NCBI GenBank assembly: GCA_019594305.1
Contig: JAFDTZ010000001.1
Location: 1 to 45,617 of the forward strand
DNA from: Thermoplasmata archaeon
Lineage (GTDB): Archaea > Thermoplasmatota > Thermoplasmata > Halarchaeoplasmatales > Halarchaeoplasmataceae
Direction: 5' to 3'
DNA length: 45,617 bases
Both the position numbers and the translations under genes were made by a program. Below, one piece after another: positions 6,866 through 26,057 of this stretch. Within the stretch, counting starts at the first letter, position 1, and each line of letters opens with the position of its first letter. Below the pieces are notes generated by a model that did not search any database, was not told the DNA's origin, and saw nothing but the letters and a program-made list of their open reading frames with translations.

Positions 6866-9800
6866 CTATAACGCAGAATACGGATAATTTCCGTAACGTT
6901 ATTATGCCTCCTTTACGGTCGGTGGTAGCGATGCGGTTACCAACGGTTCGAGATAGGATATTTATCCATCTGCTGTCCTACACCCGCTTTGCCCGGGGTA
7001 AGGAGGTTCCGTACGAGGTGTCACAGCCGGGAATAGCGGATAGCTTGGGCCTTGCACGTTCTCACGTATCAAAGGAAATGATCAGGTTGAAAAAAAGTTC
7101 ATCTGACCTGGTGGAGGAGAGGACAAGGCACGTTAGAGGTTCCAAACGAAGAAGGAAGGTGTACATTCTTACCCCCCTCGGCCAAAAGAAGGCTAACTCG
7201 ATCATAGAGGGATTGATGAAAGAAATCATTACCATAAATGACGAGAATGGTAAACGCAACGTCACGCTCAGGGAGTTAGAAGAGCTCCTAAATGTAAAGG
7301 ACCCCATCACGGCGGCCTTGAGGGACATCGATGAAGAAGGCGTACTGGACCTATGCAAAAAGAGAGACATCGAAGAGATATTCATAGGCAGAGAGCGTGA
7401 ATTAAAATTGTTTAAAGAATTATTGATCGATGTGAAAAAAGGCTCGGCGAGGACGGTGATAATCAAGGGAGAGACGGGCATTGGTAAGACAAGATTGGTT
7501 TACGAGTTGAAGCCCATAGCCCTTGAGTCCGGTTTCCTATTCATCGAGGGTGTATGTAAAGTTGAAACCGCGGACCCCTACCTCCCCTTCAAGGAAGCAC
7601 TTTCCGGGTTGAACGACATGGACCATGATGAAAAGTTCACCAAGTTCTTAACCTATGATTCTAATTCGGAACCCGAGACGAGATCAAGTTTGGATGCCCT
7701 CAGGGAAGCGGTTTTTTACGATTCAACGCGGATGATAATGAAATTATCGGAAAAAAAACCTGTCGTCATTTTTCTTGATGATTTACATTGGGCCGATAAG
7801 GCCACTCTGGATCTCTTCCGGTATATGGCGGAGACCTTCGAGAATGACAGGGTGCTCCTGTTGGCCACTTACCGACCGGAAGAGGTGAACCTTGACCATC
7901 CCCTGGTCGAAACCCTTTCCAGGATGTGCCGTAAGAATGTGCATATGGAGGTGGACCTAGAACCCCTTGATAAGATGTCAACGAAAAAATTGATCGACGT
8001 CCTAACCGGTTTTAACACCCCGGATAATTTCGTAGGATTTATGAATGAAAAGACAAGGGGAAACCCTTTGTTTATTAAACAGCTGTTAAAGGAGATGCAG
8101 GATGAAGGTAAGGTAAGTGCAGAAAAAGGCTATTACGCTACGGAGGATATGAATATCACGGTACCCGAGGTTGTTGAAAGGATCGTACACCGGAAACTAT
8201 CTCACCTGGATAGAGCGGGTCGACAGGTACTTGAATTTGGATGCGTGCTGGGTAAGGAATTCTCCTTTGATATACTGGATTCGGTATCCGAACTACCGGA
8301 GATGCGGTTACTGGACCAAATAGATATACTTGTGGACCAAGCCATATGGTGCGAAGATGCCGAAAGGGATCGCTTCCACTTCACCCACGAGCTGGTACGG
8401 GATGGCGTATACAACAATATCAAATCGGTAAGGAGGAAAAAACTCCATGGTGTGGTAGCCCGAAAAATGGCCGAAAGGTACTCCGGAACCAAGGACAGAT
8501 TGTCGGATATAGCCAATCACTACATGGAGGCGGGCTTACGTGAAAATGCACTGGAATATTACGTGAAGGCCGGCGAACACGCCAAAAGCCTTTACGCACA
8601 TGAGAACGCCGTACAGCTCTTCGAAAAAGGGTTGACACTCGCCTACGAGGATGACCGCAAGTCCTGCCTCCTTCTTGAGAGTATGGGAGATACACACACG
8701 ATTCTCGGAAACTACGAAGAGGGAAGAAGGAGGTTGGAGGAAGCATTAGGTAAACTGGATGCGGATAATACGGAAGAAATTGGTCTTAGAACGAGAATCC
8801 CACGTAAGATAGCCCATACTTGGTTGATGCAGGGGTCCTATGAAAGATCCATTGAATATATTAATATAGGTATATCTCTTGGTGCCGAACACACAAAGGA
8901 GTGGTGCATACTGCTGAACGTAAAGGGTTGGACCTACATGAAGACCGGCGATTACCATAAAGCCGCCGAGATATTCAAAGATGAGCTAAGGGTTGCGGAA
9001 GATCTAGGTGATGAAAAGGAGATATCCAGAGCACATCATAATTTGGGTACGATAGCCTTGCAATCCGGGGATTTTGACGATGCGACCAGACACCTGGAAA
9101 TAGCTGCGGAAGGTTTTGATAGTTTGGGTGAAAAAGTTAAATTATCAAAAACGCTTAACAACCTGGGAGTTATGTATCTGAGAAAACATAATATTGAAAA
9201 GGCCTTGGAGTACAACGAGAAAAGTCTGCTAAATATGGAGGAGGTAGGTGATATCCAGGGCATTGGAATGAACCTCAACAACATGGGTATAATATATTCC
9301 ATGATGGAAGACTACGAAAAGGCCCTTGACTGTCATGATAGAAGCATGGATATTAAACGGAGGATAGGAGATTCGCAAGGGATGGTCGAATCACATACCA
9401 ACATCGGAGTGATACACGAGAAAATGGGTGATCTCGAAAGGGCACTCGAAGAATACAAGAAAGGGTTGAGTATCTCCCGAAAGATAGGCGATGCACGGGG
9501 CACGGCGGAATTACAGAACGATATCGGATGGATATACAATCTCAAGGGAAAAGTCACAGATTCCGCAGAGATGCTTCGCAGCTCATTAAAGCTAAGAGAG
9601 GATATCGGTGATATCCACGGTTTAGCCGAATCCCATAGGAATCTTGGGATCGTTCTCCTTAAAAAAGGTAATATGGAAGAAGCTCTTGAACACCTTGAAA
9701 AAGGTTTCGAGCTGGCATCGGATATGGATGATGAATATGAAATGGCCTTGATATCAAAATGTACCGGAGATGTGTATCACCAACAAGAAAGATTCGCTGA

Positions 9801-12900: not shown

Positions 12901-12907
12901 TTTTTTT
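12901..12907 (+). terminator. Oligo-T (T7) terminator directly after tRNA-Leu
   Basis: TTTTTTT starts at the first nucleotide after the discriminator base. Oligo-T is the archaeal termination signal. Confidence 0.6.
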
Positions 12908-13019
12908 ATTTCAGGCGTAGCGTGAAATGAAAAAGTGAACAGAATCTCTGATTCTGTGGCATTCAATTATCTTAACGAGTGAAGCGAGAGAAGTTTGTAA
13001 AAGGGGGACATCAGTCCCC
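12901..13019 (+). repeat. tRNA-trailer element, copy at tRNA-Leu
   Basis: Contains T7, a TTTCA..TGAAA hairpin, GAAAAAGTGA (12929..12938) and hairpin CAGAATC-TCT-GATTCTG (12940..12956). It also contains TTAACGAGTGAAGCGAG and hairpin GGGGAC-ATCA-GTCCCC (13004..13019). The first 58 nt match the tRNA-Ser trailer at 45/58 ungapped positions. Confidence 0.7.
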
Positions 13020-25833: not shown

Positions 25834-25862
25834 CGGTCGTAAAAGTGCCCGATCCGGGATTC
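25834..25862 (-). repeat. Partial duplicate of the tRNA-Arg 3' end plus flank (att-like direct repeat, distal copy)
   Basis: CGGTCGTAAAAGTGCCCGATCCGGGATTC is identical at 25834..25862 and 25972..26000. The proximal copy covers the last 17 nt of tRNA-Arg and 12 nt of 3' flank. Confidence 0.85.
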
Positions 25863-25971
25863 TGGTCACAAACACTCGTTTCACTCGTGATTCTAACCGC
25901 TCGTGCATTTAAGTGTAAATGCACTCACGAACCTCCGGTTCTCATCCCGTTCCGGTCACTTTTTCTCCCTC
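25863..25971 (-). repeat. tRNA-trailer element, copy at tRNA-Arg (109 nt between the direct repeats)
   Basis: On the minus strand it contains GAAAAAGTGA, the 9-bp/4-nt-loop hairpin at 25903..25924 (plus-strand sequence GTGCATTTA-AGTG-TAAATGCAC) and CACGAGTGAAACGAGTG. It ends GTGACCAGAATC, fused to the duplicated tRNA fragment. Confidence 0.65.
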
Positions 25972-25983
25972 CGGTCGTAAAAG

Positions 25984-26057
25984 TGCCCGATCCGGGATTC
26001 GAACCCGGGTAAGAGGCTCCGCAGGCCCCTATGATATCCAGACTACACTAATCGGGC
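25984..26057 (-). tRNA. tRNA-Arg (anticodon GCG), no intron, no encoded CCA
   Basis: Acceptor GCCCGAT/ATCGGGC. Anticodon stem GGGGC/GCCTC with loop CTGCGGA. T arm CCGGG-TTCGAAT-CCCGG. Discriminator A. Confidence 0.85.

Follow-up and report, generated by a model that had tools for sequence, protein, structure and literature searches.

The DNA analysed here, hereafter the window, comprises positions 1 to 45,617 (forward strand) of contig JAFDTZ010000001.1, part of the metagenome-assembled genome (MAG) of an uncultured Thermoplasmata archaeon (assembly GCA_019594305.1; 2.08 Mb in 197 contigs) whose named relatives include Ca. Haladaptatiplasma halalkaliphilum, order Ca. Halarchaeoplasmatales. 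This report concerns a tRNA-Arg(GCG) gene on its minus strand and the 109-nt insert (25863-25971) that follows the gene between two copies of a direct repeat. Read in the sense of the tRNA, the locus consists of the tRNA gene, the 12-nt flank CUUUUACGACCG, the insert, the tail GAAUCCCGGAUCGGGCA, a second copy of CUUUUACGACCG and unique flanking sequence. As an earlier note made from the sequence had stated, the 29-mer CGGTCGTAAAAGTGCCCGATCCGGGATTC occurs in two exact copies, at 25834-25862 and 25972-26000, and the copy nearest to the tRNA joins the last 17 nt of the gene, from G57 in the T-loop to the discriminator A73, to 12 nt of flank. No third copy with up to three mismatches was found in the window (0 expected from 100 shuffles), nor any beyond these two in the entire assembly. 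The genes around the locus are ordinary (radical SAM, DUF4352, AP-endonuclease-like), and its features are the following:

25984-26057, minus strand: intact tRNA-Arg(GCG), CCA not encoded (Infernal, Rfam tRNA model, 56.6 bits; ARAGORN places it at 25983-26057)
25972-26000, minus strand: tRNA-proximal copy of the 29-mer, exact, made of tRNA positions 57-73 (25984-26000) and the 12-nt flank CUUUUACGACCG (25972-25983)
25949-25971, minus strand: leader GAGGGAGAAAAAGUGACCGGAAC, whose AAAAGUG (25957-25963) can pair, according to the fold, with CACUUUU 3' of either tRNA-end copy
25937-25948, minus strand: anti-T-arm segment GGGAUGAGAACC, GGGAU pairing with AUCCC of the tail (P1) and GAACC with GGUUC (P1a), from alignment A3 and pair counts
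25929-25936, minus strand: P1a loop GGA and GGUUC (5' half of the T-arm), directly 5' of the core
25899-25928, minus strand: hairpin P2, GUGCAUUUA-CACU-UAAAUGCAC, with the flanking tandem G-A motif UGAG / CGAG, from covariation and compensatory changes in Arg-GCG orthologues
25864-25898, minus strand: long hairpin P3, GGUUAGAAUCAC-GA-GUGAAAC-GA-GUGUUUGUGACC; a tandem G-A motif lies inside it, and a U-G wobble in it is conserved
25834-25862, minus strand: distal copy of the 29-mer, made of GAAUCCCGGAUCGGGCA (25846-25862, tRNA positions 57-73) and the copy of the flank (25834-25845)

Core and tail of this unit meet at A25863. The insert was described from the outset as non-coding, and no credible open reading frame was found in its 109 nt, the sole frames being of 55 and 58 amino acids on the plus strand and running through the tRNA. 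A scan of the region against Rfam 15 passed the tRNA alone, the next best match scoring 18.8 bits against a cut-off of 80, and a hammerhead or any other known ribozyme or RNA family was rejected for the insert for want of an Rfam match up to E = 10. The sequence GAGCGUUUAGAAU was discarded as a promoter, being unlike the B recognition element (BRE)/TATA consensus found upstream of tRNA-Arg genes (CGATAAATTAAA).

Examination of all tRNA genes of the genome with ARAGORN revealed inserts behind tRNA-Arg(UCU) and tRNA-Ser(GCU) with the same internal sequence as the Arg-GCG insert, each ending in the tail of its own tRNA. A covariance model built from these three units (R1) recovered 15 copies in the genome (15-18 by covariance model overall), nearly all of them directly behind tRNA genes, which bears out the earlier suggestion that the insert belongs to a family linked to tRNA ends; no family copy away from a tRNA end was found in this genome with R1. 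The copies are often in tandem, with periods of 110, 117 or 171 nt or with a 59-nt inner repeat. Many contigs of the MAG have an end within a module array or at a tRNA gene (C119, C150, C33, C50, C89, C42, C146, C30 and C166), the repeats having evidently broken the assembly. Copy numbers are therefore minimum values, and the parts of several tRNA genes lie on different contigs.

The family extends well beyond this genome. Spread over 10 genera, 23 of the 24 other genomes of the same taxonomic family were matched by R1, whereas the 16 genomes examined from outside the family gave no match. A second model (R2), built from 101 units with the structure derived here, matched all 17 family genomes searched, with 2-19 copies each, and beyond them detected 1-2 copies per genome in ten further Thermoplasmata families, 18 genomes in all; it had no match in four well-sampled Thermoplasmata families (10-16 genomes each). 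Outside the home family the units sit behind tRNA-Leu, Ser, Met and Trp, and their design is unchanged. The module also occurs on metagenome contigs from soda-lake sediment, and an exact 32-mer search of JGI metagenomes for strain-level alleles gave no match. More than 100 homologous units of conserved structure are thus spread over dozens of genomes. Units are borne by at least 15 tRNA isoacceptors, always in the sense of the tRNA, and an intact tRNA lies upstream in every unit whose upstream sequence was examined. Behind tRNA-Met, cores multiply internally without tRNA pieces.

Two variants of the module were seen apart from these. In one genus, the second unit of an array (L025 in genome G019 and L030 in G011) carries an extra insertion of about 50 nt inside the core (..GGGUU|UCUAAAGGAAUUAUAAUUCCUUAUCUCACUCACCAGG..). 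On two metagenome contigs (Ga0210006_1049129, L200, and Ga0051980_10103658, L205), a relative of the module stands alone, without an upstream tRNA gene: its sequence opens with GCGGGAUGAGAACC..GGUUCGUGAG and closes with UAUCCCGCUCGACCCACCA, after which comes a terminator made of a hairpin and a T-run, and its core, in which the same GA hairpin recurs, is larger. This stand-alone relative has no match in Rfam.

The anatomy of a unit was read from the alignment of the 101 units. Its 5' part comprises a spacer or leader, frequently starting with a T-run, then the antisense of the T-arm, a loop of 3-4 nt and GGUUC. The core follows as RYGAG, P2, CGAGC, K-UUAGAAU, a long P3 with GA..GA inside, and AUUSUGA-NC-N. 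At the 3' end stand GAAUCC and then the T-stem 3' strand, the acceptor 3' strand and the discriminator of the host tRNA. The leader of the Arg-GCG unit is conserved in relatives. In most units of the home family the antisense segment is GGGAUGAGAACC, and in other families it is the exact antisense of the T-arm of the adjacent tRNA (e.g. GGGGAUUUGAACC behind GGUUCAAAUCCCC); some units (Ser-GCU, Gly-CCC) have instead the tRNA's own variable-arm and T-stem 5' sequence in front of GGUUC. Tails follow their tRNAs closely, with at most 1 nt of difference over positions 57-72 in 47 of 64 units. Behind tRNAs with a UUCAAAU T-loop, the tail of the unit still begins with GAAU or GAAC. The first few letters of the tail therefore belong to the module and the tRNA-specific part begins in the T-stem, which places the junction of donor and recipient inside the sequence common to all T-arms.

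The pairing of the tRNA-sense strand is under selection. In the scored structure (P1, P1a, P2 and P3; 29 pairs), standard pairs fill 88.0% of 2298 pair cells, compared with 73.6% in shuffles and 31-48% with slid partners. Because the alignment was fitted to a related model, the pair counts are somewhat biased in favour of the structure, yet the contrast with slid partners and the number of pair types leave a clear signal. Both sides of a pair have changed in 364 cells, as against 111 in shuffles, and none of 500 shuffles reached the observed covariation score. P3, with 13 pairs, is paired in 92% of its cells and shows changes on both sides at 11 pairs. Its U-G wobble is preserved in 78 of 92 distinct rows, which identifies the folded strand as the tRNA-sense strand. 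A symmetric tandem G-A motif (YGAR opposite YGAR) is identical in the P2 and P3 hairpins, and among orthologous Arg-GCG units P2 has changed by compensatory pairs: GUGCA/UGCAC in the genome of the window, GUACA/UGUAC in G014, GUGAA/UUCAC in G005 and AUGAA/UUCAU in G041.

The unit of the window folds with z = -5.0. When the tRNA is folded together with the unit (z = -6.3), the distal tail serves the acceptor stem and the proximal 3' half pairs with the leader; the two tail copies being identical, there is little to choose between this fold and the ordinary one of the tRNA. A general mimic of a tRNA minihelix, formed by the leader and the acceptor 3' strand, was rejected: it holds for the unit of the window but not in general, own tails giving -11.9 and foreign tails -11.6 kcal/mol. 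Features of box C/D small RNAs (sRNAs), namely a C box RUGAUGA and a D box CUGA with guides of 10-12 nt next to D and D', are absent, the tandem G-A motifs lying within continuous helices and the variable parts being stems, not guides.

Other small modules were observed behind tRNA genes of this genome. The trailer of tRNA-Leu(GAG) (window 12901-12990, plus strand) has an initial U-run that can pair with GAAAUGAAAAAG, and its hairpin CAGAAUC-UCU-GAUUCUG is of the type of the P3 base; the four other tRNA-Leu genes of the genome bear related trailers. The likeness of the insert to this trailer (GUGAACAGAAUC), from which a common origin in element ends fused to a tRNA fragment had been conjectured, is real but short, and what the two have in common is a small hairpin type (UUAGAAUC..GAUUCUGA) and no tRNA fragment. 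The trailers of tRNA-Ala and tRNA-Val form a second module family of the form xGGAAC-NAG-GUUCCx-ACUCAC-hairpin-GUUCG. Behind tRNA-Ala(UGC) (C38:31350-31850) at least five small modules are stacked, each ending in GGUCCA or UCCCGCUGGGUGAG, and the trailer of tRNA-Val(CAC) (C141:8324-8480) opens with a 16-nt exact antisense of its own T-arm and acceptor strand. At C37:18160-18250, about 110 nt upstream of an intron-bearing tRNA-Ala(GGC), the partial 3' third of a tRNA-Ala holds a two-hairpin module in its T-loop, unlike the usual placement behind the tRNA.

Comparison of related genomes, which the earlier note had proposed as a check, revealed occupied, empty and differently filled sites. Among family genomes the Arg-GCG site holds a unit in 15, a reduced variant in one (G024) and none in 12, and two genera (g6 and g7) each have both occupied and empty sites. 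At Arg-UCU a unit is present in 13 of 30 genomes and absent from G003, which belongs to the same genus as the genome of the window. In the closest relative, whose protein neighbouring the locus is 88% identical, the syntenic site retains the leader, the tail and both flanks around a different, composite core; its repeat covers positions 57-73 only, without the copy of the 12-nt flank, and the distal copy abuts the native flank. Across the family the repeats measure 16 (Ser-GCU), 17, 29 (Arg-GCG), about 55 and at least 70 nt (Arg-UCU). Arrays in G012, in G014, on the soda-lake contig and in other families end with a tail, a leader and an anti-T-arm segment and then diverge, so that their register is not fixed by the border of an attachment (att) site. 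In G010, the cores behind tRNA-Gly(UCC) and tRNA-Cys(GCA) are 97% identical from GGUUC to GAAUCCC and have different tails, and the Cys leader resembles the Arg-GCG leader of the genome of the window. Units are gained, lost and exchanged: the occupied and empty sites, together with cores that have moved between tRNAs, indicate that single units are dispensable and exchangeable, though the family persists in every genome of the lineage. Clustering of the cores by tRNA or by genome yielded no information, since their freely varying stems leave every class at about 50% identity.

Our favoured reading, held with moderate confidence, is that the 29-bp repeat encloses a single member of a family, present throughout the lineage, of structured non-coding modules of about 110 nt, which are anchored on tRNA 3' ends and reshuffled by recombination within T-arm and tail repeats. 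Transcription would yield an RNA with the tRNA-sense sequence, in the simplest case a 3' trailer that arises when the tRNA promoter drives read-through, and this RNA would fold into a helix junction closed by the pairing of the anti-T-arm segment with the duplicated half of the T-arm. The T-arm is the one sequence that every tRNA gene has in common, and recombination or template switching there would first leave the duplicated tail behind as a by-product and then use it as a substrate. Such events could also add units, remove them or exchange them and bring cores to other tRNA genes, and a dedicated integrase would not be required. As to a role at tRNA 3' ends, we can only guess at a cis-acting, protein-binding 3' structure that might affect end processing or stability of the pre-tRNA.

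Several observations weigh against this reading. Hairpins of single-stranded DNA (ssDNA) on the top strand would yield the same covariation and tolerate G-T and G-A pairs. Several units lie behind runs of 7-8 T that are expected to terminate archaeal transcription. Every single unit is dispensable and the copy number ranges from 1 to 19, which suits a selfish element equally. Recombination would have a microhomology of 5-10 nt to work with, which is little, and none of its intermediates was observed. Finally, the complementarity of leader and acceptor is not general, as the energies given above indicate, and so lends no support from a minihelix.

A stronger functional claim, which we consider rather unlikely, is that the modules are tRNA-specific regulatory or protective RNAs combining a conserved protein-binding scaffold with a tail, and an anti-T-arm segment, matched to one tRNA. 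If so, the cell could sense, gate, shield or repair the 3' half of the matched tRNA, for example by competition for the acceptor 5' strand in the precursor or by offering a decoy to enzymes that attack tRNA ends, and the system would be class-wide in Thermoplasmata.

The rivals to the module family reshuffled by T-arm recombination are, in descending weight, a Y1-moved transposable element, a miniature integrative element and a relic related to introns. The first of these is unlikely but has to be taken seriously. The core would be a non-autonomous ssDNA transposon of the IS200/IS605 type, similar to palindrome-associated transposable elements (PATEs), that a Y1 transposase acting in trans places on the 3' side of the GGUUC of T-loops; insertions would survive only if they had hit a spare, partial copy of a tRNA or if unequal recombination in polyploid cells rescued them. 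The form of the core is as such an element would have it, namely two hairpins without terminal inverted repeats, in one orientation and always directly 3' of GGUUC. Presence/absence polymorphism and the 97% identical core behind two different tRNAs also fit, and Y1 transposase genes (PF01797) are at hand, with three matches in the genome of the window and genes in 16 of 24 family genomes. Moreover, IS200-type copies lie 23-400 nt behind tRNA genes in relatives, and a relative of the second module family is inserted after GTTCG in both end hairpins of a resident IS200. However, Y1 transposases read specific hairpins, whereas the stems of the module vary freely among copies in one genome, and the hairpins of resident IS200/IS605 elements look different: the end hairpins of the Y1 elements on C6 and C107 (CCACCAGTC..GACTGGTGG and others) are unlike the core, and neither element is matched by R1. 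In four genomes with 6-12 units (G006, G007, G013 and G015; MAGs 73-95% complete) no Y1 gene was detected. Nor was a family copy found away from a tRNA end, and transposition leaves the anti-T-arm segment, the intact upstream tRNA and the compensatory changes in orthologues unexplained.

The resident IS200-like element concerned, C6:620-1440 (L198), has its Y1 transposase gene between direct repeats of about 85 nt that form the hairpin CCACCAGUC..GACUGGUGG. In both repeats the insertion after GTTCG is 47 nt long, consists of two hairpins and itself ends in GTTCG; it is absent from the same IS in G009, and it represents a relative of the tRNA-Ala/tRNA-Val trailer family at a non-tRNA site. The IS200-type transposase genes downstream of tRNAs have the orientation of the tRNA and follow tRNA-Thr(GGU), tRNA-Ser(GGA) and tRNA-Glu(UUC) (L193 and L194 in G009, L190 in G004).

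Three further readings were rejected. Target-primed reverse transcription, in the manner of short interspersed elements, fits the anatomy, but reverse transcriptases (PF00078) are absent from the genus and were found in 2 of 24 family genomes. A guide RNA resembling the omega-RNAs of TnpB (PF07282) was set aside because all TnpB matches in the genome of the window are below threshold. A viral origin was abandoned since, among 54 pattern matches in IMG/VR, none scored with R1, plasmid collections lying outside this search.

The attL/attR scar of a tyrosine integrase, which the earlier note had put forward for the duplicated tRNA end along with a mini-element mobilised in trans, appears improbable. 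In its present form the proposal is a miniature integrative element, a circle of about 140 bp with a tRNA 3' fragment as attP that a tyrosine recombinase, possibly the Xer-like one of the host, integrates in trans, or the decayed att scar of such an element; tandem arrays would result from repeated integration. A tRNA followed by an insert and by a second tRNA 3' end that starts in the T-loop is the classic layout of T-loop-class integration, and this is the layout of the locus. The closest relative adds to it a repeat of just positions 57-73 whose distal copy abuts the native flank, and in several genomes the Xer-like gene adjoins a module-bearing tRNA-Lys(CUU). Against this stand the homologous inserts of about 110 nt behind at least 15 isoacceptors, each with its own tRNA tail, so that every isoacceptor would need an attP of its own. 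The repeats vary from 16 to at least 70 nt, and the arrays end out of register after leader and anti-T-arm. The sole tyrosine recombinase (PF00589) of the genome is a single Xer-like gene on contig C194, a gene that module-free Thermoplasmata families have as well; the model scored on none of the viral contigs, and the integrase-bearing element with the same 29-mer that the earlier note suggested seeking was not found in the assembly. The Xer-like gene (C194:8959-9441) lies next to tRNA-Lys(CUU) (9571-9672), and the same pairing was observed in several genera (genomes G003, G004, G005, G007 and G014).

We find it quite improbable that the unit is a relic or by-product of a T-loop intron, whether as the 3' part of a former tRNA gene split at 56/57 or with the distal tail as an alternative 3' exon whose use would splice out all the sequence between the tails. 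The units of Ser-GCU and Gly-CCC, which keep their own variable-arm and T-stem 5' sequence before GGUUC, would suit such a descent, as would the minimum-energy fold of tRNA and unit, which pairs the acceptor 5' strand with the distal tail. The lineage does have a T-loop intron, in tRNA-Lys(UUU), but this is 28 nt long and unrelated, and homology of the module to it was rejected. On inspection, no bulge-helix-bulge could be drawn at 56/57: UUC and GAA lengthen the T-stem there, and 3-nt bulges are absent. Wherever the upstream sequence was examined it contains an intact tRNA, the interrupted copy being the spare one, and the cores behind tRNA-Met multiply without tRNA pieces. That the tRNA 3' region was simply duplicated locally and in tandem, with neither family nor function, a reading for which the earlier note had reserved the case of relatives without polymorphism, is scarcely credible: the two 29-mers are identical and only 138 bp apart, but the relatives are polymorphic at the site and the homologous units with conserved structure number more than 100 in dozens of genomes.

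Mobile DNA classically targets tRNA genes, and a duplicated tRNA tail is as a rule interpreted as the footprint of an integrase; here a tiny module without a protein, whose fold is under selection, makes the same footprint repeatedly. Should the modules act as RNAs at tRNA ends, they would constitute an unrecognised layer of archaeal tRNA biology; should they be selfish, they would show DNA parasitising, in a new way, the one sequence that all tRNA genes share. In practical terms, they break assemblies and cause annotation to miss tRNA genes, and software that searches for genomic islands would mistake them for att sites of prophages. Full-text searches found no published description of such modules and only related ideas, on mobile elements that disrupt archaeal tRNA genes (PMC3293823), on the diversity of tRNA introns (PMC4090602) and on circular omega-RNAs (PMC12558985).

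Among known systems, the att sites left by tyrosine integrases of archaeal viruses and plasmids (SSV-type, pNOB8-type), as well as their integrase-less remnants, have in common with the module a direct repeat of the tRNA 3' part that starts in the T-loop, an insert between the intact tRNA and a displaced tail, and stacks of inserts punctuated by copies of the tail. In contrast, the module has about 110 nt and no gene, the same folded core stands behind at least 15 tRNAs, the length of the repeat varies, arrays end out of register, and no viral copy or integrase beyond the Xer-like gene was found. Non-canonical introns and split tRNA genes of archaea likewise show a T-arm interrupted at the T-loop and tRNA fragments beside tRNA genes, and it has been suggested that the disruption of tRNAs is linked to mobile DNA (PMC3293823, PMC4090602). 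The module differs in having neither a bulge-helix-bulge nor a recombinase-bearing element and in interrupting a spare copy behind an intact gene.

IS200/IS605 elements and PATEs are also small, two-hairpin elements without inverted terminal repeats that lie in fixed orientation 3' of a short conserved motif, whereas the hairpins of the module are unconserved and unlike those of the resident IS, all copies are bound to a tRNA tail, and both sense and antisense segments are matched to the tRNA. The RtT repeats behind tyrT/tyrV of E. coli (Rfam RF00391) resemble the module as tandem, non-coding repeats with tRNA-derived sequence directly behind a tRNA gene and with a poorly understood function. 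They are, however, bacterial, belong to one tRNA and have a different fold, and the Rfam scan of the region gave no RtT match. Dicistronic genes that join a tRNA to a small RNA are exemplified by the tRNA-snoRNA genes of plants and the tRNA-C/D sRNA units of Nanoarchaeum. Unlike these, the module is without C/D boxes or guides, and its tail copies the tRNA instead of complementing a target; by analogy it may nevertheless work likewise, as a structured RNA made from the tRNA promoter and freed by processing of the tRNA 3' end.

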